Notes under the pieces: generated by a model
Databases searched by the model: none
Told to the model about the DNA's origin: nothing
Seen by the model: only the letters and a program-made list of their open reading frames with translations
Position numbers and translations under genes: made by a program
Source: Camelus ferus
Lineage: Eukaryota
Assembly: GCF_009834535.1 (NCBI RefSeq)
Contig: NC_045696.1
Location: forward strand, 49,912,001 to 49,976,000
Reading direction: 5' to 3'
Length of the DNA stretch: 64,000 bases
Shown: positions 251 through 35,285 of the stretch, one piece after another
Layout of the letters: the number at the start of each line of letters is the position of its first letter
Numbering within the stretch: position 1 is the stretch's first letter

Positions 251-421
<171 letters not shown>

Positions 422-3028: not shown

Positions 3029-3559
3029 TTGCTGGGGGTGGGGGTGGGGTGTCTGTGACTCCTCTTCCCTAAGGTAGATAATAATAATCAATGCTTATGC
3101 ATGTTTGTTAGTGTCTGAGTACTTCGCTGATGCCAATTCTTTAAATTCTAGCCACATCTTAATTAGGTGGGTACTAACATTATGCCAATTTCCCACATGA
3201 GGGAACTCTGACGCAGGTCTCACCGTTAGGAACTCTGTGAGGGGATTAGCCTGGGCAGCCTGATTCCTGAGCCTACTGTCCGCTCCACCCCTCTTTACTC
3301 TTTCTTTGCATGACTCCGGACTTACAGGAGGAAGAAGTGTGTTCCTGTGTATTATTCACCTGCATATTTTCTGGTATGCTCAGAATCCTGCAGGATGCCT
3401 GGCACGCAGGCGAAAGTTATATGTTCATAGTCATATGTTGATTAACTGAATGAACTTTTGCCAGGCAGCGAGAGCAGGGGCAAGCCCTGGTAACAGACAG
3501 CTCCTGGGGTGCCTGGAACGCCAAACTTTTCCGTGGCAAGGGGCTACAGGGCCCATCCA

Positions 3560-4240
3560 GGCCACAACCCGCCGCCCACTCCGGTCCCCAGTCAGCTTCT
3601 GCTTTGTATCTGTACCAAGAGAAAAAGGCAGACAGCGCCCTGAACAAACCAGAAAAACAGCCCTCCTTGGCTCTGCTCCTAGCAGGGCACCGAGGCGGCG
3701 CGGGGCAGGAGCGAGGGGCGCGTCCGGGGCGAGAGGACCCGCCCCCCGCCCGCCCCGGCCGCAGCCTGAGGTCTCCCCGCCCCCGCCCGCCGGGGTGGAG
3801 TGTGAGCCACCCGCAAGGCCACTTTGGACTCTGCACCCTCGGGTGTGTGCGTCCTGCTTCCTGGCAGGCTGTTCAGTCCTCCTCCACTCGTCCATGGAGG
3901 GGGCCAGGCCCCCATCGCCAGGAGATGGGCTGGAGCTCTCGGCGCTCCAAGGGCAGCCAGACGAGCAGACGCCTCTCAATGGAGCCGTCCAGGGCTTCCA
4001 TTCTTCGACCGAGGAGCCCTGCCCAGCCCAGGTAAGGTCGTCTCGGCGCTGGCGGCGTTATCCGAGGGGCTGTGAGCCAGGCTGCCGGCTAGGACCCGGG
4101 CCTGGCACCGCACGGCTCCCCGGGCGCAGCAGACCCCGAGCGCAGGCGGTGCGCGCTGGAATATTCTAAATGGAGCGGACGCAGGAATGCCCTCCAGGCG
4201 GAGGCTGCCCGAGGCCCCTCCGACCCCTCTGACTCCGGGG
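3560..4240 (+). promoter_or_regulatory. CpG island and GC-box promoter of C3orf52
   Basis: Very GC-rich and CpG-dense, with multiple GGGGCG/CCCGCCC Sp/KLF boxes at about 3695-3795. Spans the ATG at 3894 and the exon 1 donor. Confidence 0.85.
3894..4031 (+). CDS. C3orf52: C3orf52/TTMP (TPA-induced transmembrane protein) exon 1 of 6
   Basis: tccATGG start. MEGARPPSPGDGLELSALQGQPDEQTPLNGAVQGFHSSTEEPCPAQ. Donor CAG|gtaagg, 138 nt, phase 0. Confidence 0.92.
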
Positions 4241-6155
4241 AACTTGAGGAATCTTATCTGGGAGGTGTACGGCTCCTCTCTTCAGAGAGAGAATTCCCCT
4301 AGATAGAGGTGGTTTTAGAAAGTTCTGTAACTTTTAGTTTTCCTTTTTCCAGCAGGGAGAACTCCAGTTATCTCTGGAGTCTCCTTTTCTTCAGAATCTC
4401 TCTGCCTTCCTCTTTCCTAGTCTGCCTTGCCGCTTGTCCGCACCCTCCCCTAACCTCCACCCATCTCCCACCTTCCCCCCATCCTGGCTCACCTAGACCC
4501 AAACTTTATCTCCTCCCAATCTGGCTATTTGACTTCGCAGGAAGAGATGAAGGGTGGAGGTGGGGGCAAGTACAGAAAGGCTGGCAGAGCAGGGGCGGTG
4601 GGGGCTGTGAACTTGCGCTGCTCAACTGAGGGAAATAACTTCCAAGTTCTTGTCTCAAAGAACTATGCCTTATTTGCTCATCTCAGTTTCCAAGGAAGTC
4701 CCTGGTGATGTTTAGGCTGAACTCTTTTCTAATTCAGCCCTACCAGTTAACAGGAAAATTATTCATTCTCATCAAATGCTTATAAAACAGCAGAGACTTT
4801 GAATTCTGAACATCTGTCTTCTGATTAACCCTTCAAACTGGCTTGATGTCTACTGGGTATCTGGAAAGCCCCATATATTTGTATGTATGTGTGTGTGTGT
4901 GTGTGTGTGTGTGGTTCCAACCTGACCTTTCTAGGTCTCACTCCTCCACTCCCATCCCTTTGGCTGCTCAACTGTTGATTTCAGGGATAAGCAGGAAATT
5001 CAGTAGTTGAAAGCATTGCTTTTGCTTCGTCATTGATTCCTGGAAAGATTGTAAAGTCTGCTTTTATGGTTACCCTGTAGAGTGATTAGTACTTTATATT
5101 TGAATGAAAGAGGAACAACACAGAAGAATGGAAGCGGGAGGAAGATGATTTGATCTCTGTGCAAGTGGCCATAACCGTGGACTCACAGTTTGGATCCTCC
5201 AAGCCAGTGTCTAGGAATGGGAATTGGGGGTGCTTACCTCATGTTAGGCAGACCCAGGACACTCCACAGACTCTTGGTTTGGGACTGAATCCAGAGATCT
5301 GAGTTCTGGTGACAGCTTCCCCATTGAAAGCTATGTCCTGAGGCAAGGCACTAAGGTCTGGATTTTCCCATTGTCAGCTGGTTGCGATGTAACGTGGCTA
5401 ACCAGTCTTCTCTGTGAGGCCGGGGGATGGCGTGTTGAAGACGACTGAGGAGTAGAATGTACGGAACACATGCAGGGTGTCGATATTTTATAGTCGTTTA
5501 GTACTTACCCAGTAGAGATTGCTCTTTCATGTTTTAATTACTTCCTCGTTAGCCAGGTGTATACAGATATCTGAGACTTCCTTGTGAACTAGCTTTGTAG
5601 GTCACTGAATAAGAAAGCTGTGTGAGGGACAGAATGGCGTGAAGATGAAGGGTTACATGAGCACCTGGAGAACATTCTAGAAATGCTTGACGAAGAAAAA
5701 CTTAAAACAGAGAGAAAGAAATCCTCATCTAATGTGCCAAGTGTTCTCATCGGTTCCATGGAATCAGCTGAAGTGTATTTTAAATTGAAAAGTCAACTAA
5801 CATAGAGCCTTTTAAAGTGGGTGGCACAAGCACCAGATCCAGACTCTTCAGAATTTTGTGTGTAGGTCTCTTTAAACCACATGTTAAGATTTCCAACTTT
5901 GAAATGTGGTGTAAGTTCATGAGTTTTTATTACCTATATGTTTTTGTACCCATCATGTGCCAAATACTTCTGCTGCATAAATGCATTTAATTGGTACAAC
6001 AAACTTCAGAAGAAGGTAGCAGCATTCTGGCTTGACAGATGAGGAAACTGAGCTCAGAGGAGTTACCGAAATACTCAAGTTCATGCAATGGTGGCTCTAA
6101 GATTGAATGCAGGCTTTTTAGGTTTCAGACCTAAGCTGCTTTTATTGATTTATTT

Positions 6156-9200: not shown

Positions 9201-9988
9201 GGGTGTGAGTGGGGCAGTGACATGCAGCGGGAGTTAGTCCTGGTCCATCTCTCCCAAATGCACCTTTGAAATTGGCTAATGCCTCCCTTGCAGGGTTGCT
9301 GGGATGAAGTGAACCGGTGTTGGTGTCAGTAGACCACAGCGGTTGTAATTATTTACTTTGACCCCACCCTCTGCCTCACTACACCCATTGCAGCTTATTT
9401 CCCGGTGTCTCTCACATGCTTGTCCTTCCCTTTATTTCCCCTTTCCAGGCCCTTATTACTTAGAGGCCAGGCCACAGCAGTATTTTCTTAGCTCTTTCTT
9501 GGTCTAAACTACACATCATTTTTCTCTTAATCTTCTGCTCAGCTTTTGTGTTCCAAAACCTTCAACTGGTTCCCAAATTATGTCCAAACTGCCCTGCAGC
9601 GTTCAGAACCCTCTCAGATTTGCTCCAGCCTTTCATTCTCTAATCATAACTCTCACTACTAGCCTCTGAAACCCGCATTCCCATCAGATGCTTCTTGTGG
9701 CCATTTCCATTACGAGTCAACACGGAGGTTGCTCTTTCCTGGGTTTGGAATGCCTCTCTCTGTCCACCCTTCAGAATCCTGCCTGTCCTTCCCACCTCAG
9801 AGTCCCCAGAGCATTTTCTTGCCGACTTCTCCCTGAGGTTCCATTCTGTCCCTTTGTAAACTCGACTCAATAGAGCGGAGCCCCTTGAGGTCAGGGTCCT
9901 GCTGCCTTCATTTCTGAATACCCGGCCCATGTTAAAACACGACTGTTGAAACCAGATGACTGCCTCACAGTCTCCGTCTGCTTTCCAG

Positions 9989-10118
9989 GCTGACCAGGAA
10001 AGCCCTTGGAGCGCCTGTAATAGGACTTTGATTGGAAGATGCAAACTGTGGATGGTCCTGGCCTCCATTTTCCTGGGTTTCATTATAGTCATCATCATAA
10101 GCTTATGTCTTATGGGAG
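9989..10118 (+). CDS. C3orf52: C3orf52 exon 2 (transmembrane helix)
   Basis: tttccAG acceptor. ADQESPWSACNRTLIGRCKLWMVLASIFLGFIIVIIISLCLMG. Donor G|gtaag, 130 nt, phase 0-1. Confidence 0.93.
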
Positions 10119-13100
10119 GTAAGAGCATTTAACATGACTAAGTCGATGCATTTTAAGAACTTTGTAATGCTTATGACTTGTGCTGAAATCGAAGGTGGAC
10201 TCACCGCGATTTTATCGTTTATAATATGAATTTAAAAGTGGTTTGGGGTATGTCGTATGGGTGGGAAATATACACGATTCATGTTTTTCTGTTTACATTT
10301 TTTTGTTTGTTTTATAAACTCTGAAAGAAGTGTGTTTTACTTTAAACTCTACCCATTGGATGGTAAAGATTTCTTAAATTTTTGATTATGTAAACCTTAA
10401 TTTGTATTTTATTATATCTTACACATATGTATTTGAAAAAATTTTAAAACAATTTGCTAAGTAAAGATAATTACTGTAAAAGGTAATTATTTGTATAAAG
10501 ATAACTTTATCTGATGTATTTGGTATATTATTGTAATGATAAAATGATAATGTATTTGAAAGCATTTAAAAAACTATAGAACCATGTATCTGTAAGCTAC
10601 TATTATTTTAGCGTATTTTAGAAATCACTATTATATGTGTGTTGTATATGCTTACAAAACAAAAACTTACATGGTGCTAACTATATATTTTACATTATCT
10701 CATTTTATTTATTATTTATTATGAGTATGAGACATGTCTGTACTAACATGTTGAGTTACCCATAAAACCCATCCACACTAATATTTTGTTGTATTTTTCT
10801 CCAGTCTTTTTCTTAATTGCATTTTAAAAATAATCTGAGATCAAAAAAAAAATCTGAGATCAGATTTTTTTATCATTTTGTGGCTCACTTTTAGGATTTT
10901 AATTTTATGTTGAGATCATTTTGCCAATTCATTAAAAGTTATTTGTGAACATCTTTCTTTTTTTTTTTTTTTAATGACTGCATGATGCAGTCTTCCACAC
11001 CATTTTAAAGCCTTTTAGGTAGTTGCTAATTTTTTTCAGATTATGAGTATTAAGTATTTTACAATGCATAAATATAGCACCCCCCAGTGGGCAGTCATTT
11101 CAATTTCAAAATAGGAAGGAAAGTAAGTGTCTTGTATGTGGGGGTGATGGTAGGGTGCGGGGGTTGGGGGGGTGCTTTTCTGGAGCTGGGATACCTGTGA
11201 GGGTGACCCAGTCACCACAGGACTGGAGTTGAGCCGGGCTCTCCATAGCAAACCTGGTCATCGCATGAGAGCAAGAGTGGGCAGCCCCTGAGTCTCTCCA
11301 GAGGGGGCCCTAGGAATTCTCAGGAACTGCATTTGTCATTCACCCCCTGTTCCTCCTTCTCCCAACCCTTTCATCACCTGTTTCAAGGTTTTATAGTCCC
11401 TAAAGGAATAGGAAAACTCTGACATGTGTCAACGTCCAGCGTGTGAGCGTCTCAGGCAGGCACCATGTTTACTGAGTAACTCAGGCATTGATGGGGTGGC
11501 ATGGATGCGTCTTTGAGGCCATAGGCTGGTCCTGAGGTAGGGAGAAGTTGGTAGGAGGTGCTGTACCTCCTCCATCATGCTGAGGACAGTAGTCTTGGTG
11601 TAAGCATTGAAACTCCCTCTTCCCATCAACTCTCACATGTGGATGTTGAAACTGAATTTGAGTCACACCACCTCATCCTATCATAACCAGCCAGTGCTGT
11701 CCTCAAAGTTGGCTGATTTGTCTGTTGGCATCTGGGACCTATAACAAAGGAAGATGCAATAGATCTAGTTGGTTTGATATTCAGGATTCTAAAGCACAAG
11801 ACCCAAGAACTGTCTTCCATTCTTAAAAAGTCATCGGACATTTTCAAAACACTAAGAGCAATCTGCAGAGGAAGGGATTCCATTTCTCGCCACAGTTTCT
11901 TGGGGGGACGTGAGAGTTCATAGGGTAATATTCAGGGAAGAACTTTTTAATACTTGTGGTGCAAACTTCGTTTTCAGTTTGGTTATAAAATTGTGTTTTA
12001 AAACTGTTAATGCTGTAAGAGATTTTCAAACGTTTACTTTTTTTTTTAAATCAGGGAAACACTTTTATTTTTGCTCTTCCTGTGTGAGCTTTTCTGTGAG
12101 ACATAAGAAGGGACTTCCTGCGTGATGCTGTGCTGGTTGGATTTGCATTGCCTTCAGTTGGAATGGGAGCCACATCTTATGATGTCACACAATCCTGGCG
12201 GACAAGCTGGTTGCACAGGTTGCTCCCTGGTGTAGGGTGACTCATGGGAAAATCCTAGGCAGACAGTAAGGTCCTTGGGGGCAGAACTTAACAGCCCAGT
12301 ACCTTGAAATTTCTTCACATTCCCTCAATTCTCTGTGTTTCTCTGTCTTCCCAGGACCAACCTCTTCACCTGTGCTCTGCATAGGGTCCTCTCTCCACTT
12401 CTTCTGACCGGTGGACCTTCAGATCTCTCTCTGTAAGCATCCTCTTGGGTCTCTTCAAATGTGCTCATGCAGTCTCTCCTTCAAAGCAGTCTTCCATCAG
12501 AAACTTGCTACTTCATTTAGATATTTTTCTCTCTCCTTTTTTTCACTGACAAACTCTAGAAAGTGAGATCTGCCTTTGGATCCTGCCTCCTGCTCACTCC
12601 TAAATCCCTGTATCCATTGGTCCCAAATTGTCCTTCCCAAGGTCACCAGCAAGTGCCTGATCATGAAACCCAATGGCCTGCCTCGCGTCCCCTGCCCGGG
12701 TTGCAGCCTTCAGCTCTGTCGACTGTGTTGTACTTTTCCACATCTTCAGAACTCGTGGGCTTTAGGACTTCATTTCTGTCTTTAGCCTCCACACAGGTGG
12801 TTGCTGGAGACTTATCTTCAACCTTCTTACTCTTCTCATTCTTCATTCTTTCCCCGCCCTCTCTTGGATGCACATGCTTTTCCTGACTTTGAGTCCTGCT
12901 AGAGATCTCTACCTGGAAATAACTCATCATCTCAATCGTTATCCGTGTGAAACTACCATTTGTGTGTATCCCCTTCCCCAGTGAGCTCACCCTTTATATT
13001 TTCACAGTGAATCATGAGGCCAGGTTTATTCTAGCTCTGCCACCATCCAATTGTGTAATATGAGGCAAATTCTTCAACACTCTTGGTCTCAGTTTCCACC

Positions 13101-14715
13101 TTTGTAAAACAGAAATGATTTCTGAATCTCTGTCTATAAATGTACCCTAACCCTCCTACTTCCTAGCTCAACTGACCTGAGCAAATTATGTATATTTTTT
13201 CTAAGCCTCAATGTCTTCATTTTAAAATGAAAACATTAATCTTTAATTCATTAGGTTGATTTGAGGATTATATGAGGTAAGAACTACAAGTGCATAGCAG
13301 AGTCTGTGCACAATGCTTAGTACGGTAGCTACTATTCCTCCTGTCACCTAGGCTTGATACTCTGGAACACTTTTGATTTCTTCTTCTCCCCCATAACTAG
13401 ATAATGACCAAGTCTTACCAATCATCCTTTTGTAGTGTCTTGATAGTAACTTTTAACATTAACTACCTGCTTACTCCAAGGTACCGTATTTTGGCTGGGT
13501 ACTTTATATGTAGTGGTTCTGATCTTTACCATCACCCACAATGTAGGCTTGATATTTCTGTTGAGGAAACTGCATCAGAGATTTAAGTGACTTGCTCAAG
13601 ACACATGGCTAATAAGTAGCTAATAAGACTTTGATAGCCAGCTCCGTTTCCACCATCCAGGACTTTCTCCTCCCTCTCTTCCTTCCTCCCTTCCACTTCC
13701 CACTGCTTTCAATCAAAATCTCTCTCTCCCATTCTTGTGTCCAGTGGCTTCTCTGCCTTCAGTCTCTCCCAGTTCCATTTTATCTCATCCATCACCAGCA
13801 GATTTATCTCCACCCCCTTCCTGGGAGGCTTTTGACAACCTCCATTACTCCCGAAGACATCTGGCATTGAAGGCCTCCCTCTCCAGCCTCATTTCTTATA
13901 TTCCAGCCAAAGAGCTGTTTTTGTGTACTTCCAATGTGCTTTGTGTATGTATCATGATTTTTGTTTAAAGCCATTTTCTCTACGTGTAAATACTGCGCAG
14001 ATTAAGTCATTAGTGACGTAAACTTCTGCTGAGTAAGCCTGTTTTTGTTGTTGATAGTGTTTTGACAAACACAACCATTGAGCCAGGTCTTGTACAGATG
14101 CATTATATGGATTCATTATACTTGTACTAACAAGTTAAGTGTATGTCATTAAAGCTATTGTTGGAGACCTCTTTTCGAACTTGGCATTTCTTAGTGCCCT
14201 TGAGTTTAGCAGTTTTGTGACTCCTGTATTCATCCTCTGGCATCTTTATTCCTTTTTGAGGCAATGATATCTACTCTGGAAATGTGCCTGGTGCATGTAG
14301 ATCTCAAAGATACCGACTGCAGCATTATTTATAACACTGGAAATCTAAACACACTAAATGACTTCAGAACATTAGTGCAGCCTTTAAAACAATCTTTGCA
14401 AGGAATTTCAAACATCTGGGGAGTGGCTTTTTGACGTGCTAACAACAGCAACAACAAAGGATCAAGGCAGATAAGCAGTGACCACAGTAAGCAACAAAAA
14501 GCAGTATGCAAATTACCTTCTCATTAAGACCTCAGATATATAATATGAAATATGGGCAAAAAGCCTTTTGGTTAAAGAATTATTTTTTGTAATGTTTTTC
14601 TTGCTTTGCTACAATTTCCTATACTCTGCATGTTTCCTGCTTTGAGAGCATAACTTTTATTGTCAGACAAATAATTTAATGACTTACAACAAATAAGGAA
14701 GCAGGGATAATTCCC

Positions 14716-15233
14716 TGTGTTGGGGTCCCCAGGATCACCCCCAGATTTAGTGATTTGTTGGAAGGACTCAGCATACAGTCACAGAGATGACTATGATTCA
14801 TTACAGCAGAAGGATGTAAAGCAAAATGTGGAGGAAACCAGGTGCAAGCTTCCAAGAGTCCTCACTCGGTGCAGGCACAGTGCACTTAATTCTTCTAGCA
14901 ATGAATTGTGACAACACGTGTGAAGTACTGTCCACCAGGGAAGCTCCATAGAGACTCAGTGCCCAGGGTTTTTATTGGAGCTTGTCACATAGGCCGCCTC
15001 TGTCTGGCACCTTCTGAGACTCCAGACTCCCAGAAGGAAAGGAGAGGTTCAGCATGAGCCATGCTGTCCTTGCAAACATTTGAGACCCAGCCAGCCACTC
15101 TAACCAGCAAATGTGGGACACCTCCCTATCCCCCAACTGAAATCCAAGTTCCAGACTCCTGCCAGGGGTCAACCTTAATGGCCTCTCTGAGGCTGGCAGC
15201 CTCCAGCCTGTTCTGTTAACTCTTTCCTGCACA
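14716..15233 (-). mobile_element. Solo ERVL-type LTR (MER77/MER21-like) in C3orf52 intron 2
   Basis: TG...CA termini (tgtgttggggtcccc...ttcctgcaca) and a perfect 5-bp TSD TTCCC at 14711-14715 and 15234-15238. AATAAA on the minus strand near 14970. Confidence 0.85.
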
Positions 15234-16270
15234 TTCCCTTGCTCCTGGTGCCTCACACTTCCAGATGTCCTCAGGGAGTGAGGCCCAGGCTCTTACTTCC
15301 ATCATAAACCCGGAATTGGTTCTACCATGTCCTTTTCAAAGTCCAGTAAAAGAGGCTGATTATGTTATGTTTGAGGCGTGGGATCAGAGAGAAAATTACA
15401 CAGGACAGGAACCCCTGGTTCCTCCCACCCACGCCTTTCTCAGGGCACGAGAGGTGGTCCCCCCCGTGGCCCTGGCAGGGAGGCGGGCAGGGAGCCAGGA
15501 GAGCATGATTAGTTCCAGTGCGCCAGCGTCCAGTTCCTGGCTCCCGACTCTGTGTGTTTTTCCTTTGGTTCTAACTGCTGAAAAATCAATCAGCTCACAG
15601 CCCTTAGAACACCAGCAGTCACCCAGAACTCATTGTCCCAGGAAGGTAAGTCCCATGGGCCCTGAGGCTCTGGGTGTAGTTTGGGTTCCTTCTGCAAACA
15701 GAGTGTGTCCACATTCCCTCCCGGGGGACAGACTGTGGGTGATGACCTCACGCTCACTCGCTCAGATTCTAATCCCTGCGCAGTTCTGCTCGCTGATGTC
15801 ACTCCTCAGCGCGTGCGCAGACGGAAGGCGATTCAACAAAGTTCCCTGCTCTGCTCCCGTCCCGTCACACCCATTGTTTGTTCATCCCTCCAGATTGCCT
15901 CCAGCACCTGCCTTGACACCTGTGCAGGTAGCTAAGCTACAGGGTCAGCTTAACAAAGACGTTCATCCCGCCTCCTCCTCCCGCCCTCCTCCCAGCCCTG
16001 TTCAGTGGAGTCGACACCCCTGTGGCATAAAACGAAGAAGCAAAATTCTTATCATGATGGAGGCAAGCCCCTGTCTTTATTCAGTCTCACTGAGAAGAGA
16101 AAGCATTTCAGCTGATACTTGCTTCCTGTGTCCAGGCTTTATGCTTGTTGAATGCTCATTGTTTTTGTTGGTTTGTTTTTTAAGTATAGTGACTGTCAAT
16201 GGAGTAAAAAAGTTTATTATTTTATGCATGTGTTTACTTTTACTTTTTATTTCCACCTCCCGCCCTTTAG

Positions 16271-16398
16271 TGACTTATGTCGATGAAGATGAAAATGATA
16301 CATTTGAATTATCGTCAAGTAAAACATTCTTACTGGTGCTAAAGCTTCCAGAAGAATGTGTCACTGAAGAGGAATTGCCTGACTTGCTCACGGAAAGG
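16271..16398 (+). CDS. C3orf52: C3orf52 exon 3
   Basis: ctttAG acceptor. (V)TYVDEDENDTFELSSSKTFLLVLKLPEECVTEEELPDLLTER. Donor AGG|gtgaga, 128 nt, phase 1-0. Confidence 0.93.
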
Positions 16399-18629
16399 GT
16401 GAGATACCTCATGCATTGTTCACTGAGTTCTTAGCATTGGAGTATGTGTGAATTCTTCCGGAACAGCTGGCTTAGTGCTATGCAGCAAGTAAGTAGCTTC
16501 AAGGTTGGATTCTTGGTCTGGATATTGGCAGAAACTGATGCTTAGGAATGGATTTTCTGTAGTGCGGACCCAGAGGGAGGAGCCCTGTCCTCCAGCTAAA
16601 TGCTTCCCAGAGGACAGCGTTCTGTATCCTTACTCTGCTTTTACCTTTGAATCAACCTGAAGTTTCACTGAGGGTCTGTGATGTGCTAGACAATATGCCC
16701 AATGCCAGGGCCAGAGTTTGTGCCCTCAGTGGGGACTCACAGTCCAGGTAGAGGAAGCAATTAAATAGAGAGGTATAAACAGTGTGATATGTTCTATCAC
16801 TGAGATGTGTACAGTGTGTTTTACAGCCACAGAGGAGGGGCATCTAAACTACCTGAGGTGGGGATGCAGGCTTGGAGGGCCTCCTGGAAGAGGTGATACT
16901 CGGGATAAGTCTCAAAATGTGAGACAGGGGTGTTCCAGATTAGAGGGCAGGAAACACTAGGGGATCTGCCTGGCAGTGGACTCTGGCCTCCGCATACTGT
17001 GTAGCAGACTTGCAGAGGTGAGGCTGAACAGGAAGGGAAGGGTCAGATCATGAAGGTTTCCATGTCCTTTGGAAAGGCACGGAAAGATTTTAATCTGCAG
17101 GTCGACATGGTCAGCTTCTCCTTTTAGTCTCTCTGTGTGATGATGGAAAACCCCTGGAGGTGGAACACTTGGTTAGAAGGTACTGCAGTAATCCAGGTGA
17201 TAAAGGAGGGAGCCTTCAACTAGGGCAATGGTGGGGGAATAATTGAGGTTCAAGTGAGATTTCAGAGGTCTTCTCACTCAGCAGGACGTCGTGGCTGGTT
17301 GGACATGGTGCTGAGGGAGAGTATGGCTCTGGGCTCCTGGTCGGGTGGCCACGTGGGTGGGTGGTGACGTTGTCATGGACTGGGAGATGCAGGACCCTGA
17401 GCTCCGTGCAACATGCCGGCTCTGCAGCCAGACCACGAGGCTTGGTCAGGGTGGTCCTGGTTACCCTGTCAAAGACAGGGGGGTTCACAGCCAGACCCAG
17501 AAAAACGTTTTGGTGAGAAAATCTGTATGATCAGCCTGCCATCCATTCCCCTCTTCCCTGCAGTTGATAGGCCGAGTGGAGTGAGTCCTCTTTATTTGGC
17601 TCCCGTTGGGCTCCTACAAAAGCTGAAGGAGGTGATTCCATTGAGGTCACCCCAGAGTCAGTTTCTGGGTGTCGTATACCTGCCATGTGATCACAGGAGT
17701 TTGTACCTGGGAGGATTATTCCGGGTTTCTCTTCCTCCTTCCTCCCCTTGGTTACTATCTTATCTGCAGTGCCTTTCCTTCCACCTGCTTCCAGAGCAAG
17801 TCGCTGACTGAATACTTCTTGCTACTTTCCTCTTGGTTGCTTTTTTAACAGAGGGGTTTTGCATTGGCTGAGCAGAAACCAAATGAGTCAGCACCCCTGT
17901 GTGTCACCTGTTACAGACGGGACTTAGCTCTGTCAAAGGGAAATCTACGTCAAAGGGAAACCGTATTAATCACTCACCTTCGAGCCATATCTCTTGCACA
18001 GAAGTGGACATGAGCAGATTCTACAGGTGTTTTTAGCTCGTCACTGTGCAGTGGCCGAAGAACAGGGCCTGTCAGGGGTCCCTGGGGCGAGTTCACAGGC
18101 CTCTCTGAGCTGGTTCCTGCTCCGATAAATGGAAATCACCGTACTTTCCCTGTATACCCACAGGTGCCTGTGAGGTGCATTTTTAAAAGAATGATCTGAT
18201 TTATAGATGACAAACATAAGGCGCAGTGAGGTGAAAAGGCTCCTGCCCCTGGCTTCCCAACCAAATGTGTTCAGAACAAAAATAAGGAACTCAGAGATAG
18301 TACTACCTTCTTGTCACGTCAAGAACCTCCTTCCTCCAGCTAGGCCAGTTTCCAGAAGTTTCTGGCTGTGGAAGGAAAATGGGAGTGGATATTGAAACCC
18401 TGTGCCCCCTCTTATGTTTTATTGTCTTGCTTTTCTAAACACAGTTTTCCTGGCCCCTCTCATATCTCACTGCCAGTTTCCTTCTTTTGTGGTTGAGGCC
18501 ATTACCCTGGTTAAGCTAGTCCATCAGCTGTGTGGGTCCCACCTCAGCACACATGCTGGATGCAGGAGTTAACAGTGACCCCTGTGATAATGCAGGAAGG
18601 TATCCCTCTTACTCTGGAAGCTGGTTTCT

Positions 18630-19192
18630 TCCCTTCCTTCCTTCCTTTTTTTTTTTTCTTAACATTATCTCTTTTTAAAAAATGGAGATGTAGTTGATGT
18701 ATAATATTTTATAAGCTTCAGGTGTACAACATAGTGATTCACAATTCTTAAAGGTCACACTCCATTTATAGTTATTGTGAAATATTGGCTGTATTCCCTG
18801 TGCTGTATACTATATCCTTGTAACTTATTTATTTTATATGTAGAAGTTTGTACCTCTCAATTCCTACCCCCATTTTGCCCCTCCCCCTGCCTTCTCCCAA
18901 CCGGCAACCACTAGTTTGTTCTCTATATCTGTGAGTCTGTTTCTTTTTTTGTTACAGTCACTAGTTTTATTTTTTAGGTTCCACATATAAGTGATATCAC
19001 ACAGTATTTGTCTGACTTATTTCACTAAGCATAATATCCTCCAAGTCCATCCATGTTGTTGCTAGTGGCAAAATTTCATTCTTTTTTATGGTTGAGTAGA
19101 ATGCCTTTGTGTATGTATACGACAGCTTCTTTATCCATTTATCTGTTGATAGACTCTTAGTTTGCTTCCATATCCTGGCGATTATAAGTAAT
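18630..19192 (-). mobile_element. 5'-truncated L1 (3' UTR, L1MA9-like)
   Basis: Poly-T head and L1 3' UTR motifs. 15-bp TSD tggaagctg(g/a)tttct at 18615-18629 and 19193-19207. Confidence 0.88.
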
Positions 19193-19822
19193 TGGAAGCT
19201 GATTTCTGTGAGCCACTGTGCCCGACACTGGGGTTCAGCTCACTGGCTCTGAGCTCAGTCTGCACCCAGCCTCGTGGGCACAGCAGGGAGACACCAGAGC
19301 AAGGGGTGAGGAGTGCCTTGTTTCGCTTCTTTGGCCTCAAAATGGGTAGTGTGATTAATAGCTCCCAAATATGTAAATATGTCCCAGTGATAGCTGGGAA
19401 CCGTGCCACCAAAAAGAGTCTTAGAGCAGACACTGAAAATGATCTGGTATACCGCTCCATCTCCGAACATAAAATTTTACCTTAAGGCTTTTTCTGAGCG
19501 CCTCTTTTGTGCAAAACACAGTGCTCAGGGCCCTACGGATTCATCAAGGAAGGATGAGAGGGAGGGAACAGAGAAGGAAGGACAAGCACAATTCCTGACA
19601 GAAGAAGCTCAGTCTGAAAGGAAGGGAGCGACATTATTGTTATCATTTTTAGTGCTTGAAAAAACTCCCCTCTAGAGCACCCCCACCCCCTTCCCTGCGT
19701 TCTGAGTGGCCAGGTGAGAGCCGCTTTCCGACTTCCAGGGTTTCTGAAATGGCTGTTGGCCTGTTGGCAACTTTCTTTTTTCTGGGGCTCAGAAACTATA
19801 AGATGACTGCCTCATAGTTCTT

Positions 19823-20300
19823 TCTCTCTTTTTTTTTCTTTCTTTTTTTGAATATATGCATTTTTATTGAAGTATAGTCAGTTTACAATGTTGTGTTAAT
19901 TTCTGGTGTACAGCACAATGCTTCAGTCATACATGAACATACATATATTCATTTTCGTATTCTTTTTCACCGTAAGTTACTATAAGATATTGAATACAGT
20001 TCTCTGTTCTACATAGTATGAACTTGTTGTTTATTTTATATATGTTAGTATCTGCAAATCTTGAACTCCCAATTTATCCCTTCCCACCCTCTTCCCCACA
20101 CCGTGTAACCATAAGTTTGTTCTCTATGTCTGTGAGTCTGTTTCTATTTTGTAAATAAATTCGTTTGTCTTTTTATTTTTAGATTCCACACATAAGTGAT
20201 ATCATATGGTATTTTTTTCTCATTCTGGCTTACTTCTCTTGGAGTGACAATTTCCAGGTCCATCCATGTTGCTACAAATGGCATTATTTTATTCTTTCTT
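19823..20300 (-). mobile_element. 5'-truncated lineage-specific L1 3' end
   Basis: tttttattgaagtatagtcagtttacaatg... L1 tail. 15-bp TSD tgcc(t/c)ca(t/a)agttctt at 19808-19822 and 20301-20315. Confidence 0.88.
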
Positions 20301-21079
20301 TGCCCCAAAGTTCTTAACAAGTTATGCTTCTTTCCTTCTTAATATTCAGAAGGAGACACTTTCCTCCTTGCTTCGTGGCCCCTGGGTAGTGTGGTAAAAT
20401 GTGAGGAAGCCAGGATTAGTGTCTGTAACAGGTAGGATTGAAGTCCTTACTAGCAGAGTGACCTGGGGCTAGAATTTTTTGTTTTTTTAATCAGTGAAAA
20501 GGGGAGAGACAGCAGTGCCTCTTCTGGCAGGTTCTTATGCAGATCACAGCCATAATGACAGGACTTGGAGCTCTAATCCTCTCTGCTCTGCCTTGGAGAG
20601 GCTGAATTGTCACCAGTGAGTTAAGCGGGAAGTGTTCCGTGGACTCAGCCTCCTTGAGATTCTTTTGGGACTCGGATGGGAGACAGATGGGCTCGTTCCC
20701 CTGGGGGACCTGCTGTCGGGGTAGTTCTGCCGCCTGCTGCTGGGTGAAGCAGTGGGGCCCTGAGCTGGGATGGGTGCAGCTGTGTGCACCGGGCTCAGCG
20801 CTGGGAACTGCGGGTGTCTGTGAGATTTCAGAATGTCAGAGCTGAGGGTTCAGGCCAGCAGGAGTGGGTCTGGCTGGTTTCTCAGGCCTGGCTGTGGGCT
20901 TGCTCCAGCCTCGGCGCTGGGTCCATGCTGGGGGCTATAACCAGATCCCAGCACAGTGCTCCTGTCTGCTAAGAACAAGGCATTTAACCTTCAAAGCAAA
21001 TTTTAAAAATGCAATGTAATTACGTTCAGCCACATGTTCTCAGGTACCAAAGGTTAGAGTTCATTCACATCTTTGACAT

Positions 21080-22050
21080 ATGACGAAAAGACTAATCAAA
21101 AACTGGGAGAAGGTATTTGTAACATAAAACCAACAGCTGGTATCTGGAATGTAACACCAATCCGTTCCAGCAAGAAAAAGACAACCTGAGACAAAGACAC
21201 GACTCTAATAGGCAATTCAAAGGTGAGAAATCCCAGGGAGTTAATAAACACATGTAAAGATTCTCAACCTCACAAGCAAGACATTGCAAATTAAAACAGT
21301 AAAAAACACAATGTTATATATCCCTTGGCAAAAATGAAAAGATCTGGTAATATTAAGTGCTGGCAAGTCTGTGGAAAGTGGAGTATTTATACTTTGCTGG
21401 GAGGGGAGTAAAGTGGACACTGATTCAGAAAGACTTAGTTAAGGTGGAGATGCTCTAACTCTTGGACCCAAGTCCAACTCTCGGTATACGCCCCAGGGAA
21501 ACCCCTCCAGGTACAAGAAGATGTGTTCAAGGATGATGAGCTCAGCATAGTTTGTAACGGGAGGAAATCGCAAACAAAGCGCATGGCCACCAGTGGGGGG
21601 AGGGATGGGCGGTGCAGTCATTTCACGGAATCTCTGCAGAGCCAGGAGTTAGACTGAATGACCTCTATCTGGACGGACCATTATGGGTAAATCTTAAATG
21701 TGATTCTGAGTGAAAAACAGCAAGTCGGAGAAGATTGTGTAAAATAGGGTACCTTTTTTTGAATATAAACGGAAATTACATTTATGTTTGGTTATGATTA
21801 CACAGGGAAGCATTACATTTGTAAAGACATGCATGAGAAGGATACATACCAACTTCAGGACAATGGTTAGCAGTGGGGAGCGAGGGAGGAAAAGTGGGAT
21901 AGTCTGTAAGGGTAGATTTAGCTTGGTTTTGTTTCTTCAGGTAAAGGGCTCAGCTAAGTATGGTAAAGTGTGAAGGCTTGACACCTGGGTGGTGGGCACA
22001 TAGGTGTCATTATTCTTTATGGTTACCACATTTCATGCATAAAATAAGAA
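21080..22050 (+). mobile_element. Old L1 (L1ME-like) ORF2 end and 3' UTR fragment
   Basis: Degenerate motifs: gggagaaggtatttg, aaagattctcaacctcac, gcaaattaaaac, ctgagtgaaaaacagcaagtc. Confidence 0.65.
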
Positions 22051-22557
22051 CTCCGTATCTTGGCAATTATACCATTGCATTCCATTATAACATTGGTTCC
22101 ATTATGCAGGGGAAAGTGGCTTAGTGTGACTGCTTCTCCTTGGAGTGAAGCTCTGGAGAAAGGAGAGAAGAGGCCCTTGTTCCGTGATATGGAGGCCTGA
22201 GCGGCCTGTTCTGCAGTCTTCCCAGCCCCCTAAAGGGTTCCCTCCTTCCTGTGGTGCTTGGGGTCTGTGTGGGACCATTAAGACCACAAGGTGTCAGCAC
22301 AACATACAAGAGATGTTGAAAATGCCAGCCTGGTCACTTGGTCCTTTCAAATGAAGTTCTTTTGAAAGAATGTTAACTTGAATTTGGGTTGGTGGGAGGC
22401 CTGCTCCTTCCTGTTTCTTCATCCAGAGCCTCCAGATAAGTTAATTCCTGGCCAGAGTGGACCCTCCTTTGTCTAGGAGTAGTTTTGCTTTGCCAGGTGA
22501 TGCGGGATGGTCTGGCGGTAATGTGTGTGGTGCTTTATTTGTTCCTGTTTGTTTTAG

Positions 22558-22628
22558 ATCACAGATGTGTACAGTTCATCACCAGCTCTGAGCCGTTATT
22601 TTACTTCTGCTGAACTGATGGACTTCAG
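22558..22628 (+). CDS. C3orf52: C3orf52 exon 4
   Basis: gttttAG acceptor. ITDVYSSSPALSRYFTSAELMDF(S). Donor AG|gtaag, 71 nt, phase 0-2. Confidence 0.93.
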
Positions 22629-25612
22629 GTAAGAATGTGGAGCATCACGTGTTGGTCTCTCTCTGGAAAGTGACACCCATCACCAGTTACCAAAAATGAC
22701 TTCCCAAGTCTCAAAGCACAAAGGGGACCAGTGCTAGATAGAACCATGGTGTCACTGCCGGGAGGGTCTTTGGAGGCCAACTAGTTCAATGCCCGTGCTC
22801 TATAAAGGAGGAAAAGGAAGCCCAGACTAACTGATTAATTTTACAACCCGACAAGTGCACAGGGAGGAGAGGAAACGCCCAGATAAGTCATGGCTGTTCC
22901 CCAGCAAATGGCTTGAATAAGCTGAGAGTAGAACTAGAAACACATCTCAGATAGCGATGTGATATGATATACTCCGTGTACTGGCTTTTGCTTTTGAGGA
23001 ACACAAGTCATACATAAATCCATGCTCCTTGTATAATATTAAAGATAAAGACACATGCTACAGGGTAAGTCCACCTCCTGTCTCCCCCGCCCCACGTCCC
23101 CTGGACACTTCACGTGCCAGTCAATTCCATACACTGAGTGAATTCTACCCCTCTCTACAAAATGAACAGCCATCTGCCGTCTGTGTGATTTCTTCTATAC
23201 ATGTATTTACCGTATATACGTTATGTACCATACATGTGTAGCAGATACACACACATACATAGTTTTCCTTTTTTAGTTTCTCCTAATCTTTAATGTTTTT
23301 ATATATGTCTACAGACACCTAGATTAAAGCGTGTATGCATGTAGAGGAATCATTTTATTATTCTTTTGTATAGTTAGAGCAAGATTTACATGGCAAAGCT
23401 TTATTAGCCCCTATTCCTAAGGTATCCCTGGAATGTGACCATCAAAGGCAATTTTATGCTGAGTTCCCCCTCTCAAACCATAAATTTCGAACCTGGGAGG
23501 GAAAGCATGTAAAGCTGTGGTGCACAGTGGGCAGAACCAAAGGGACTGGAGTCTGAAAACGCATCCAGTGACAGGTTGCCTTGGCAACAACACTAGTCCT
23601 CCTTCTTTATAAAACCCCAGTGTGCATATCACCTATGGTGACACCTTTGACCTTGCTTATTTTAATCATAAATTATTAGCATTAAAATGCTAATAGAAAA
23701 GGGAGGAATACATAATCAGACCCAACTTTCCTCTGTGCACCTGCCCTAACCTACAATTCAAAGACAGAGTCGGGAGAGGAAAGGTGCTCAGAGCCTGAAG
23801 GGTCTTTCCAAGAATCCAGCCTACACTGTGGGTCTAGAGGAGGTGGGATTCAATGATGGGTTGGGGTAAAACCCATCAGAAAACTGAGTAAAATGTGTTA
23901 GAAATCTAAAGATTAAGTGTTAGAGAATATATTTTTTAAAGTTATTTGAAAGAAAAACCCAAGAGTTTTATGATTTTTGGATAAAGAAATGTCTGAGAAA
24001 CATTTTTGTTGCATTTTTTAAAGTCCAGGTAGATTTTCAACAATGTTGAATTGAGAAACAACAGCCATTGTCTCCAAAAGGCTGCTGCTGCACGTGGGCA
24101 GGAGGCGGCTGCATCCCTAGCAGACGGACTTGTGTCCGTGGGGATTCTGACCTCGGTCCTGGACCCGCCTGCAGGAACCTGGGAAGATGCCCTTTGGTTC
24201 GTCAGCTGCTGGGCCCAGTTTAGTGGTGGGCAGCTGAAGCAAAGCCCACAGCGTTCTCTGCTTCCCTCACAATTGAGCCTTATGTCAATTCACCCAGCGA
24301 CCTGACTTGGAGGGACTGCGTGGGTCTGGTCAGGCCAAGTTAGGCAGTGTGACCCTCTTATTCAGCTTCTGGCCAGGTCTTCTGAAAGCCAGCCTCCGGC
24401 CCTTTACCATCAGCCGACCCCAGTCCTTGCCTGTGGGAGTGCAGGGTGGCTGCGTGTCAGGATGTTGACCATTGTTTCCCATAATTAGAAGGTGGAGGAC
24501 AGGGCACCCCCAAACCAGAGTCGCTGGCTTAGAGTTTGAAAGCACATCTTTCACCTTTCAGCAGTGCGTCATTGAACCTGTGTGTTTCTCAAGTCCTGAC
24601 TGTAATTCGTTTGAACCCCAAGGTTTGGCACATTTGGCTTTAGTAGGGTTTGTAAACTCAGCTGTCAGCCGCATCCAAGAGTACTGGCTTATGTGACCTC
24701 TGGCCACAAGAAGGAGCTCTTTGCCTCTCGTTGGCAGGGACAGCGTTCTGATTCGTTACTGGGACTGGCTCCTCTGCAAAACTTGCCACTGGGTGAGAGT
24801 CTTAGATGTGGCCACGCTTAATTATTTGACTGCTGGCTCTTAATCGGGGCCTTCTTGAGCCAAAGGCTAACTGTAAGAAACCTCACGTTGTGGTAGCATT
24901 TAACAAGCTGTATAAGCTATTAATTAACTAAGGATAGCCTTATGATTATCTTTATTTTGGAAACAGGAAAAATATGTTCTAGGAAGATGAAAACTCCCTT
25001 TCCTCAGGTCCCCTTACTGAGAGTTGCGAAACTTTGTGAAGTGGAAATAGGACAGAAAAAGTCTCACTTTGGGGACAAATCAGGGAGGCTTGATTTGCTG
25101 CTGGTACCCAGGGCCATCTGTGGGAGTTCAGGAGTCTGTACCTGGCCGATGGCAGGGAGCTTTGGGCCCTACCTTGAGCATTTTATAGGTTAAGCAATGA
25201 AGTGGTTAAACCGAGGAGTTCTGACACGCCCTTTGGGGGCAGGGAGAGGCTGGGATGTGAGACACGGAGAGGATTTGTAACAGGAGAAACGGCTTCCCTG
25301 GGCTGCCTCAGCGGAAAGCCTGGTGTTGGGCAGCCCTGTGCCCACCCTTGACAGCAGCTGAGTCAGCCTCTCCCAACCAGCGCTCGCTCAGTGGACTCCT
25401 AGGGGATGGGTTCTGGTGGAAGGAGGAGGCGAGGACCACCCAACTTTGTGTGATGGACCTGTGGACCAGGGGTCTTAGAGAGCACAGGCCTTGCTCTTCT
25501 GTACTGGAAGAGCATGCAGAACGAAGAAAATAGTATTGCTAAAACCAGCTTCCTGAGTTGCAGTGTGATTCAACTGCTATGTTTAATGGTCGCTGTTTGG
25601 TTTGCCTTTCAG

Positions 25613-25794
25613 TGGTGAAAACGCCACAATAACCTATCAACTGCAGTTTGGGGTTCCGTCGGAAGAGGACAGTTTTATGAAGTATATGATGAGTGAGGAG
25701 TTGGTGCTGGGCGTTTTACGCCAGGATGTCCATGATCAGAGTGTATCTGGCTGTGAGTCGCTGGGGCTTGCTCCAGGGTCCCTCTTGCTCCACG
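25613..25794 (+). CDS. C3orf52: C3orf52 exon 5
   Basis: ctttcAG acceptor. GENATITYQLQFGVPSEEDSFMKYMMSEELVLGVLRQDVHDQSVSGCESLGLAPGSLLLH. Donor G|gtaagt, 182 nt, phase 2-1. Confidence 0.93.
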
Positions 25795-26270: not shown

Positions 26271-27345
26271 TATTTTTTTAAAATATAGTCAGTTTACAAT
26301 GTTGTGTCAGTTTCTGGTGTACAGCATAATGTTTCAGGCATACATCTGCATACAAATATTCCCTTTCATATTCTTTTTAGAGGTTACTACAAGATATTGA
26401 ATATAGTTCCCTGTGCTATACAGTACAAGCTTGTTCTTTATCTGTTTTATTTATAGTACTTAATATCTACAAATCTCAAACTCCCAATTTATCCCTTCCT
26501 ATCTCTTTTCCCCCTGATAGCCATAAATTTGTTTTTTATGCCTGTGAGTCTGTTTCTGTTTTGTATATAAATTCATTTGTGTCTTAAATTTTTTTTTTAG
26601 ATCCCACATATGAGTGATGTCATATGGTATGTTATTTTTCTTTCTCTTTCTGGCTTACTTCTCTTGGAACAGCAATCTCCAGGTCTATCCATGTTGCTGA
26701 AAATGGCATTGTTTTATTCTTTTTTATGGCTGAGTAGTAGTCCATTGTATAAATATACCACAACTTCTTTATCCAGTCATCTGTCGGTGGACATTTAGGT
26801 TGTTTCCATGTCTTGGCTATTGTAAATAGTGCTGCTGTGAACATTGGGGTGCATACATCTTTTCAAATTAGAATTCCCTCTGGATATATGCCCAGGAATG
26901 GGATTGCTGGATCATACGGTAAGTCTTTAATTTTTTGAGGAATATCCATGCTGTTTTCCATAATGACTGCACCAAACTATATTTCAACCAACAGTGTAGG
27001 AGGGTTCCCTTCTCTTCACACCCTCTCAAGCATTTATTATTTGTGGACTTTTGAATGATGGCCATTCTGACTGGTGTGAGGTGATACCTCATTGTAATTT
27101 TGATTTGCATTTCTCTGGTAATTAGTGATATTGAGCATTTTTCATGTGCCTATCGGCCATTTGTATGTCTTCATTGGAGAATTGCTTGTTTAGGTCCTCT
27201 GCCCATTTTTGGATTTGGTTGTTTGGTGTTTTGTTATTAAGTTGTATGAGCTGTTGATATATTCTGGAAATTAATTAGTTGCATCATTTGCAAAGATTTT
27301 CTCCCATTCCATAGGCTGTCATTTTGTTTTGCATATGGTTTCCTT
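26271..27345 (-). mobile_element. 5'-truncated L1 with ORF2 C-terminus
   Basis: Minus ORFs [27 protein letters not shown] and MFTAALFTIAKTWKQPKCP are the L1 ORF2 C-terminus. Same 3' UTR family as 19823-20300. Confidence 0.92.
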
Positions 27346-28846: not shown

Positions 28847-28851
28847 AATGA
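28847..28851 (+). CDS. C3orf52: C3orf52 exon 6 coding part (completes Glu codon, then TGA); 3' UTR follows
   Basis: Strong acceptor tttgcattttctttccAG|AA TGA. Total CDS 138+130+128+71+182+5 = 654 nt = 217 aa, ending SLLLHE* like the human SLLLYE*. Confidence 0.88.
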
Positions 28852-30320
28852 AGTGGTGGAGGCCGACCTTTGTCTGGAAGCAGTGCTCCATTGAGTTTTG
28901 GGATGAAGAGAATTCATTCCATTTTCCAGAAAGGATCCTGTGAATTAACGTATAAGGACTCACAATGACTGGAGGGGTGGAGACGGTCCTCCTTCTCCTG
29001 ATTCTGCACAGTTACGGAGTCTGGCCCTACGTCCAGCAGAACAGCCCCCAAGCGCTGCCCCGGCTGGGTCCAGTCTCGACAAAGGCACGAAGCCAGATGG
29101 GGCGGGGGTGGGGGAACGAGGTGGCAGGTGAGCCTTGCAGTGGGAGGTTCCTGCTGTTCTTGAAGCCCTAGCTGCCTCTACCCACATGTGGACACTTTCT
29201 CTTTGGTGTGAAGGTGGCCTTTTCCGGCAGGACCCCACCAGCCTAAGCTGGTGGAGAACAGAGGCAGGCAGGTGGCGAGGTGAGGCAGAGCCCAAGCGAT
29301 CACTTGCTGAAATCCGCCTCCCACCTGCGCCCTCCCACCATGACGTTTGATCTACCTCTGAGCAAGGCTGTGAGGGAAAGGCAGGCACCTCCGCAGACGT
29401 AAGCGGCTTCGCTGTGTCTGCTTCCATGACCAGTAGCTGCATCTCTTAGCAGACCAGCCTTAGACACGTCATCCAATGTCACTGTGTGATATGGAGCTAC
29501 AGAAGGAGGTGTGTGTTTCTTCATTTCATCTTCTCTTCATTGTTCCTGTGACCTCTGAACACCTCTTTTGGAAACATGGGCCCCTGTGAGTTTGGAACAC
29601 ACTACTCTCCCCATTTATATTGTCACCAGCTTCCATCGGAGAGTCTTTAAGACTGCTTCCCACCTGCTGTAGATCGCACATGTTGGCTTTTTGTAAATGT
29701 CCGGCGTTCTTAGCCTTCCTGTGGGACTCAGTGTCTTCGGGCCTTGGCTGTGTGTCTTATTGAAGAAGGTCGTGAAACAGGAAGACCCACTCTCGTTTGA
29801 AATAAACTGTGGGAAATGTAGTGCCAGGGCCTCTGGGGGGCCGGGGTGGGGACTGCACAACAGCAACAGTTTCGGTCATCTCCAGAGAGAGCACTGCCTG
29901 CCGTGGGGGAAGAGAGTATTTTGTTGGGAAAACTACTTTGCTGGAAATTTTCCAGGAGAGTTTTGTAGTCATGTGACGAGAGGTTCCTGGCCTCAGTATC
30001 TTGGTTAAATTGGCCCTGGGGGGACGTCGGGGTGGGGGCCGCTGTGTGCGGGGATGTGTCCGCATGCATGTCTCAGGCCAGGTTTGCCTTGAGCTCTTTA
30101 TGACCCAGGACTCTGGATAATGTGGATTTGCTTTCTTATTTAACTAGAAGATACATTTATTGTAACTCGAGTCTCATTTTGAGGATAGTTCCTCAAACTA
30201 GTCAGACAGATGAATTTCTCTTCCTTCTGTTTATTTTTTACATGTCAGACGTAAACTTCCGTGTGTTTGTACTTTTTAGAAAATAATAACTTCAGTGGAT
30301 GAGGATTTTAAAATATTGAC

Positions 30321-34970: not shown

Positions 34971-35285
34971 TTATAAATGGGAAAATGGAGCCTGAGAAGG
35001 GGACGTAAGTGAGTGCGGCTGTCGCACAGAGTGAGGGAAGATTCTACTGGGCATAAGAAGTTCATACTGATCTTCTGGGGAGGATGGGTGCCTGGGGGTG
35101 GCAGGCACACAAAGAAGCGAGTACTCGGTCTCAGTTCCTCCCAGCGACTCTCTCGGCCTCTCAGCCGTGAGGGAAACGTTCTCATAGCACTCCTCAGCCA
35201 AGTTCCCTGTTGGCCTTCTCCCAGCGACACTGTGGTTGATGGAGGCATAGCACAAGTCCTCCGAGGAGCTCCGGTAAGCATTCTC
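34971..35285 (-). CDS. GCSAM: GCSAM/HGAL exon 6 (tyrosine motifs, C-terminal PDZ ligand)
   Basis: ccgcAG acceptor. ENAYRSSSEDLCYASINHSVAGRRPTGNLAEECYENVSLTAERPRESLGGTETEYSLL...DQYELL...PFSHL*. 315 nt; total CDS 534 nt = 177 aa. Confidence 0.95.
   Translation of the reverse strand, partial: ENAYRSSSEDLCYASINHSVAGRRPTGNLAEECYENVSLTAERPRESLGGTETEYSLLCVPATPRHPSSPEDQYELLMPSRIFPHSVRQPHSLTSPSQAPFSHL

Follow-up and report, generated by a model that had tools for sequence, protein, structure and literature searches.

C3orf52, also named TTMP, very probably encodes the N-terminal stem of an ancient TTSP (type II transmembrane serine protease) of the matriptase subfamily. The gene was studied in a stretch of 64,000 nucleotides (nt) from Camelus ferus (contig NC_045696.1, positions 49,912,001 to 49,976,000 of the forward strand), hereafter the window, to which all coordinates refer. 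The order of a transmembrane (TM) helix, an SEA domain and two CUB domains is a mark of the matriptase subfamily; no CUB is present in camel C3orf52 and two are present in its ray orthologs, and because the latter keep the complete order, C3orf52 appears to be a matriptase-type TTSP that was shortened by stepwise loss. An earlier note on this DNA had proposed a partial duplication in which only the anchor and the SEA domain were copied; descent from a matriptase-subfamily TTSP remains the favored account, but a single TM-SEA copy does not fit the retention of both CUBs in rays. No LDLRA or protease domain was found in any C3orf52 ortholog scanned, and without these parts the protein is a derived paralog of the TTSPs rather than a member. 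In the proposed history, LDLRA and protease would have been lost before the split of cartilaginous and bony fishes, the bony-vertebrate lineage would then have shed both CUBs, and in tetrapods a glycosylatable Asn would have taken the place of the G/S autocleavage site.

Gene model and SEA domain

The joined exons of C3orf52 give an open frame of 217 residues that contains the peptide quoted in the earlier note, with AG/GT at all junctions and intron phases of 0-1-0-2-1. Exon 5 of the window DNA has 100% identity to the Camelus bactrianus 'TPA-induced transmembrane protein', the Camelus ferus record P0327 equals the window protein at 216 of the first 217 residues, and the annotated alpaca isoform P0328, which is also 217 residues long, is identical at 211/217. 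A Logan contig of 2,003 nt carries exons 3-6 joined and gives the 128 C-terminal residues without a mismatch, which implies that the junctions it joins are spliced; the junctions of exons 1, 2 and 3 are taken from annotation. The features of the gene are as follows.

3500..4250, forward strand: GC- and CpG-rich stretch at exon 1 (GC 0.69 and CpG observed/expected 0.67, versus 0.43 and 0.27 for the window), by its composition likely the gene's own promoter
3894-4031, forward strand: coding part of exon 1, 138 nt, residues 1-46, predicted cytosolic tail, phase-0 donor; 46/46 residues identical to the annotated camel isoform P0002
9989-10118, forward strand: exon 2, 130 nt, basic juxtamembrane segment and TM helix (about residues 69-87), phase-1 donor at the TM end
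16271-16398, forward strand: exon 3, 128 nt, acidic DEDE patch, SEA strand 1 and helix 1, phase-0 donor
22558-22628, forward strand: exon 4, 71 nt, end of helix 1 and SEA strand 2, phase-2 donor inside Ser156
25613-25794, forward strand: exon 5, 182 nt, equivalent of the cleavage loop with the sequon N159-A-T, SEA strand 3, helices and strand 4; phase-1 donor at the SEA end
28847-28851, forward strand: coding part of exon 6, 5 nt, final residue and stop, followed by the 3' untranslated region (first AATAAA at 29801); same end in P0328 and in the Logan protein P0001

The single hydrophobic segment (about residues 69-87) has a mean hydropathy of 3.1, and the best window beyond residue 100 reaches 0.66. 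The exon sizes, intron phases and single TM helix given in the earlier note are confirmed by this joined frame, and the phase-2 intron that it saw within the quoted peptide does fall inside Ser156. Its coordinates were right for exons 2-5, but the gene actually spans 3894-28851, and the luminal domain is present at a size of about 130 rather than about 125 residues.

The identity of this luminal domain as an SEA domain, which the earlier note had proposed, is confirmed by sequence profiles and a predicted structure. A mammalian profile search of 1.84 billion representatives returned 140 matches, most of which were left without names; those named as C3orf52 come from rays, sturgeon, gar, reedfish, teleosts, coelacanth, lungfish, amphibians and reptiles. 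Seventy of the 140, selected by length, were scanned with Pfam, and 32/70 passed the SEA cut-off (best E 2.5e-17), one of these being a lamprey ST14 fragment. Against the PDB, the family profile gave TMPRSS6 as the best sequence match (E 1.6e-7), together with the MUC16 SEA domain (E 4e-5). The AlphaFold2 model computed from the 70-sequence alignment (mean predicted local distance difference test score, pLDDT, 78.9; 88-96 over residues 111-200) has the element order strand-helix-strand-strand-helix-helix-strand, which is that of SEA domains. TMPRSS6 was the sole Foldseek match at E<=0.001. In a structural realignment to 998 chains, ranks 1-7 were all SEA domains (Z 8.6-11.7, root-mean-square deviation (rmsd) 2.7-3.9 over 89-111 residues), led by TMPRSS6 (Z 11.7, rmsd 3.1, 111 residues) and including MUC16 (10.2-9.1), ADGRG6 (8.8) and a mouse TTSP SEA domain (8.6), with unrelated ferredoxin-like folds beginning close behind at Z 8.3. 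The top clusters from the ESM Atlas included MUC16 fragments, every score being below 0.9 and usable as a lead only. Within the family the S-x-x-L and L-x-F positions are invariant, and the C-terminus lies 25 residues or fewer past the last SEA strand in 67/70 members (alignment without rays).

Several searches confined to mammals count against the SEA assignment. The camel protein P0002 has no Pfam SEA match at E<=10 (gathering score 26.4), only 26/44 mammalian sequences match Pfam SEA, and weakly (best E 0.0028), and a mammal-only profile retrieved no SEA protein from the PDB. Single C3orf52 exons likewise gave no SEA match in Pfam; sequence depth from outside the mammals was needed for the domain to be recognized.

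Intron positions add to the comparison. The SEA domain of TMPRSS6 is reported to be formed by its exons 3-5, with c.422 (Tyr141) ten nt short of where exon 4 ends (PMC2958558). That end and the start of exon 3 are set by the splice variants c.431+5 and c.230-6, respectively (PMC9331965, PMC6586001). Since c.230 starts exon 3 and c.431 ends exon 4, TMPRSS6 would carry a phase-1 intron at the TM end and a phase-2 intron in codon 144, and Gly144 occupies the column of C3orf52 Ser156 in an ungapped alignment whose numbering was set manually with Tyr141, Leu166 and Leu174 as reference points. Two of the four stem introns could be compared in this way, and both match in column and phase, the combined length of exons 3 and 4 being 202 nt in TMPRSS6 and 199 nt in C3orf52. 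The earlier note had drawn its intron correspondence with ST14, whose exons 3 and 4 would be 128 and 71 nt long with the same phases; for TMPRSS6 such a correspondence is upheld, both where the TM helix ends and within the cleavage loop. A phase-2 intron in the SEA loop is perhaps general to canonical SEA genes, MUC1 among them, and for that reason its match speaks more for homology of the SEA domains than for a matriptase parent.

Ray orthologs and the parent protease

The gene models from Hypanus (P0223) and Hemitrygon (P0294) are each 465 residues long, contain SEA and CUB domains and have the same end; those of a third ray genus, Narcine, agree with them up to about residue 320 and part from them beyond it. 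In NCBI the ray proteins bear names derived from ST14 or TMPRSS6. They keep the C3orf52 family signatures, share 44% identity with sturgeon C3orf52 over TM and SEA, and are placed with C3orf52 at 100/98 by a 25-row tree whose branching is roughly that of vertebrate phylogeny. Lamprey ST14 residues 96-466 (SEA-CUB1-CUB2) align with P0223 in one unbroken match (E 1e-28, 364 residues including the SEA-CUB linker), and P0223 ends at the start of the ST14 LDLRA1. By tblastn, ray orthologs and lamprey ST14 match the exon 5 region of the window. The predicted structure of P0223 (mean pLDDT 65.8) has two beta-rich domains past the SEA domain, and its top fold match is TMPRSS6 (408 columns, E 8.7e-20), the rmsd of 14.8 indicating that the domain positions differ. 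One point weighs against the stepwise history: the ray proteins are RefSeq gene models, and a split model could hide a downstream protease.

An SEA domain of independent origin, either mucin-like or brought in by exon shuffling, with the ray CUBs a later gain or a model fusion and the neighborhood of TMPRSS7 a coincidence, is very improbable. MUC16 is structurally nearly as good a match as TMPRSS6 (Z 10.2 versus 11.7; profile E 4e-5), its fragments are among the top Atlas clusters (all scores < 0.9), and the phase-2 intron may be a general feature of SEA genes; these similarities are set against the predicted type II orientation, the unbroken alignment of 364 residues between ray protein and ST14 with the SEA-CUB linker included, and an architecture that is identical in two ray genera and partial in a third.

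Which matriptase supplied the stem is a separate question, and the comparisons tilt toward an ST14-like protease as the parent of C3orf52. Among the 140 matches, most of them unnamed, the only gene identified other than C3orf52 was the lamprey ST14 fragment; a search for long relatives of this fragment yielded only two lamprey proteins from 4,117 candidates. The family profile scored 76.1 bits for lamprey ST14, 29.6 for pangolin TMPRSS7 and 34.5 for human TMPRSS6 (the last under other filter settings). With the SEA domain alone, ST14 outscored TMPRSS7 in 70/70 members (means 102 versus 48, with 61 between ST14 and TMPRSS7), and four loop residues are common to C3orf52 and lamprey ST14 but missing in TMPRSS6 and TMPRSS7. 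The brook lamprey (Lampetra planeri) model P0323 joins an ST14 stem to an APP-family C-terminus, and human ST14 adjoins APLP2 (PMC8394748); this fusion echoes the human APLP2-ST14 linkage and thereby supports the ST14 label of the lamprey protein.

Against an ST14-like parent stand the narrow comparison set, consisting of lamprey ST14 and one pangolin TMPRSS7 without jawed-vertebrate ST14, a TMPRSS6 sequence or an outgroup, and three of the comparisons themselves. Maximum likelihood distances over SEA-CUB-CUB (unrooted) are 2.0-2.1 for ray-ST14, 2.4 for ray-TMPRSS7 and 2.2 for ST14-TMPRSS7, and are nearly star-shaped; the identity of CUB1 is higher between ST14 and TMPRSS7 (34/113) than between ray and ST14 (26/113); and in a tree of TM and SEA, ST14 and TMPRSS7 are about equally distant from C3orf52, with a warning of long branches.

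TMPRSS7 itself, the parent suggested by position, is an unlikely one. It is represented in the window by a single feature.

251..421, forward strand: last coding exon of TMPRSS7, the upstream neighbor, with the protease C-terminus and stop (Pfam Trypsin, E 2.7e-15)

This exon is 95% identical to residues 831-886 of the pangolin TMPRSS7 model P0074, and the ATG of C3orf52 lies 3,473 nt past its stop on the same strand, in agreement with the tandem arrangement at 3.5 kb reported earlier. It is conceivable, if improbable, that C3orf52 arose as a tandem copy of an ancestral TMPRSS7 after the vertebrate genome duplications, remaining ST14-like through retained ancestral features as the TMPRSS7 stem evolved fast. 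The two genes are 3.5 kb apart on one strand, fused or misnamed records from pangolin, hyena and opossum fit a conserved adjacency, the ray protein is collinear with TMPRSS7 over TM-SEA-CUB-CUB (22% over 397 columns), the TMPRSS7 branch is the longest, and one source places TMPRSS7, ST14 and TMPRSS6 in one ohnolog network (PMC13762310). On the other hand, 0/70 SEA sequences are closer to TMPRSS7, a 4-residue loop gap is common to TMPRSS7 and TMPRSS6 and not found in C3orf52, and pangolin TMPRSS7 lacks G-S-V at the loop, unlike fish C3orf52. Of the tandem duplication of a TTSP proposed in the earlier note, the adjacency therefore stands, and TMPRSS7 as the source is disfavored by the higher ST14 scores without being settled. 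In a metagenome scan with the pangolin model that joins TMPRSS7 and C3orf52, no TMPRSS7 stem exons were found; three loci from 39 pattern matches had 32-41% identity to LDLRA or protease parts and were not used.

If the parent was ST14-like, C3orf52 may even be a genome-duplication sister of ST14 that formed an older tandem pair with TMPRSS7 and was whittled in three datable steps, by loss of the protease, loss of the CUBs and capping of the self-cleavage site with a glycan, to an acidic, GPIHBP1-like pad for LIPH, a scenario that is speculative and on balance doubtful. It requires paralogy between 3q13 and 11q23-25, which was not confirmed in the literature searched. Were it true, a protease stem would have been reused as a lipase cofactor in the hair follicle, the same organ as that of its protease sister.

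Cleavage loop, charge and the LIPH link

Matriptase cleaves itself between Gly149 and Ser150 within GSVIA (PMC3799725). In C3orf52 the corresponding column was located by counting back from the invariant L-x-F, by which rows with loop indels may be miscounted. G-S-[VIL] is present there in 16/70 family members, and each of the eight with a name comes from a ray-finned fish; the site reads S-S-V in coelacanth and D-T-T in lungfish. In tetrapods Asn replaces Ser in 18/18 named sequences, 16 of them as sequons, and N-x-T is found in 44/44 mammals. Separately, among the fish rows, 26/70 members carry an N-G-S sequon two residues before the column of the cleavage-site Ser, so that the tetrapod sequon appears to have moved by two positions and not just to have arisen anew. 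In TMPRSS6, too, the usual motif for cleavage is missing (PMC2958558).

It can fairly be inferred from these sequences that tetrapod C3orf52 does not cleave and that this is a late change; since many ray-finned fish retain G-S-V/I, the ancestral protein probably did cleave. The earlier proposal that a sequon had taken the place of the autocleavage motif thus holds for tetrapods, where Asn is found in all named sequences, but the swap was late and many ray-finned fish keep the motif.

The protein is predicted to be a type II single-pass protein, as the cytosolic N-terminus of the earlier note implied. In 66/66 scored members (4 of 70 rows were skipped) the segment before the TM helix, on the N side, carries more positive charge than the one on the C side, sequons are denser on the C side (2.3 versus 0.9 per 100 residues), and no N-terminal hydrophobic peak is present among the best hydropathy windows. 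Older descriptions of TTMP gave the opposite orientation.

The net charge of the first 128 luminal residues ranges from -13 to -20 in 44 mammals and is +3 and +5 in two rays, -5 in ST14 and +4 in TMPRSS7. Both Asp residues of the acidic patch just past the TM helix are retained in 69/70 members. C3ORF52 and LIPH are described as expressed together in the inner root sheath, with C3ORF52 binding LIPH directly and being needed for LIPH-mediated synthesis of lysophosphatidic acid (LPA) (PMC12715598, PMC12098026); the role as a LIPH partner named in the earlier note is thus reported, by secondary citation only. Among the disease variants of LIPH, a secreted protein, are some that prevent its release (PMC12098026). 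Because LIPH is secreted, it should meet only the luminal side of C3orf52, which is nearly all SEA. In a 2025 review the gene is listed for human hypotrichosis, with the nonsense alleles p.Glu12Ter and p.Tyr164Ter, and its exact function is termed unclear (PMC12715598). Tyr164 maps to SEA strand 3, the numbering being the same in primates, and p.Tyr164Ter would therefore spare the tail and TM helix and break the SEA domain.

By analogy, the uncleaved acidic luminal SEA domain could bind secreted LIPH, either within the secretory pathway or once at the cell surface, and keep it at the membrane, where LIPH would make LPA for LPAR6 in the hair follicle; C3orf52 would then be a docking scaffold and not an enzyme. 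The chances that it acts as such a dock are about even. Two points weigh against it: acidity is not universal (-1 in the tailed frog and -2 to -5 in several fish), and the nonsense alleles may work through mRNA decay and hence are no proof of a role for the SEA domain.

With the same ancestry, C3orf52 might instead serve as a folding or trafficking chaperone for LIPH in the endoplasmic reticulum, where TTMP has been located, or as a decoy for matriptases or HAI inhibitors; either job is possible, though not the more expected outcome. The secretion of LIPH and the secretion-blocked variants (PMC12098026) would suit a chaperone; the hypotrichosis that likewise follows ST14 loss (PMC8394748) and the report that matriptase-2 acts largely without proteolysis (PMC10551898) also favor such roles. 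No contact between C3orf52 and a protease was found in the excerpts of the literature searched, however, and LIPH is the sole partner named in them.

The surrounding locus and comparison with known systems

No CUB remnant was detected in the window (tblastn, E<1), and no CUB, LDLRA or protease remnant was found downstream of C3orf52. The 1286-residue pangolin record P0074 was considered as a C3orf52 with a protease and rejected, as in it the protease, from TMPRSS7, comes before C3orf52 and the stretch linking the two is translated intergenic DNA. TMPRSS7 names are also attached to the C3orf52 proteins of hyena and opossum (P0036, P0133). Given the tight spacing of the two genes, the fused model and these names are best regarded as annotation artefacts. 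A different neighbor in some teleosts is hinted at by a Muraenolepis orangiensis model (P0237) in which a CAP-ZIP (RCSD1-like) N-terminus is joined to the C3orf52 SEA domain. At the other end of the window gene, the last coding exon of GCSAM/HGAL (34974-35306, minus strand; Pfam HGAL E 7.3e-36) converges on the 3' end of C3orf52. A Pfam scan of 25 other long open stretches between 29 and 64 kb (26 of the 85 listed were scanned in all) gave no match.

Several transcript variants can be traced in the window. An alternative acceptor 18 nt before exon 2 (9971-9988) accounts for six extra residues in the annotated isoform P0002. The N-terminus of the Logan protein P0001 derives from about 16008-16062 on the forward strand, 200 nt before exon 3, with an apparent GC donor; a transcript of this type would lack the TM helix, and may reflect a cryptic exon or partial splicing. 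Several camelid annotations use an alternative last exon at about 26601-26616 on the forward strand, ending in DPTYE, which sits after a poly-T tract in a region that by its appearance is repeat-derived. The C-terminal tail is labile: over 28847-28950, donkey and rhinoceros have Trp at the position of the camel stop and continue for about 33 residues, and sloth and anteater read the exon in another frame.

The C3orf52 gene and its disease link are already known, and several fish orthologs are named 'SEA domain-containing protein' in UniRef; Pei and Grishin (2017) may also list C3orf52 among SEA proteins. A matriptase ancestry was not found in the literature searched, which did not extend to supplements, nor was 'SEA domain' found alongside the names TTMP or C3orf52. 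A matriptase-type SEA identity would indicate the binding site for LIPH and the membrane side on which it acts, and would name the residues to mutate, namely the acidic patch, Asn159 and the invariant S-x-x-L and L-x-F. The stepwise loss of the cutting domain offers a concrete starting point for how C3orf52 helps LIPH.

Among known systems, matriptase (ST14; lamprey P0324) resembles C3orf52 in its type II anchor and the length of its SEA loop, in the G-S-V site that is also present in fish C3orf52, and in CUB1-CUB2, which are in register with the ray orthologs; its loss in humans causes hypotrichosis, as does that of C3orf52 (PMC8394748, PMC12715598). It differs in that the C3orf52 orthologs found have neither LDLRA nor protease, those of bony vertebrates have no CUB, the cleavage Ser has become Asn in tetrapods, and the C3orf52 ectodomain is by far the more acidic of the two. 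Matriptase-2 (TMPRSS6) is the best match of solved structure, shares the phase-1 intron at the TM end and the phase-2 intron in the loop, and likewise lacks the usual cleavage motif; unlike C3orf52, it is a full protease with a loop four residues shorter. Matriptase-3 (TMPRSS7) shares the locus as the immediate upstream neighbor on the same strand and is collinear with the ray TM-SEA-CUB-CUB, but has the lowest family-profile score of ST14, TMPRSS6 and TMPRSS7 and different indels.

More distant are MUC16 and ADGRG6, which have the same SEA fold (Z 8.8-10.2) without the TM-SEA-CUB-CUB order, the SEA domain in such canonical proteins being N-terminal to the membrane anchor. GPIHBP1, a small membrane-anchored protein whose acidic segment captures a secreted lipase of the family of LIPH, provides a functional analogy only, as its fold is unrelated and its anchor is glycosylphosphatidylinositol. 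Taken in order, lamprey ST14, the ray SEA-CUB-CUB form, the fish SEA domain with G-S-V and the tetrapod SEA domain with a sequon would constitute a natural series in which the purpose of a TTSP SEA domain without its protease, and of autocleavage, may be followed.

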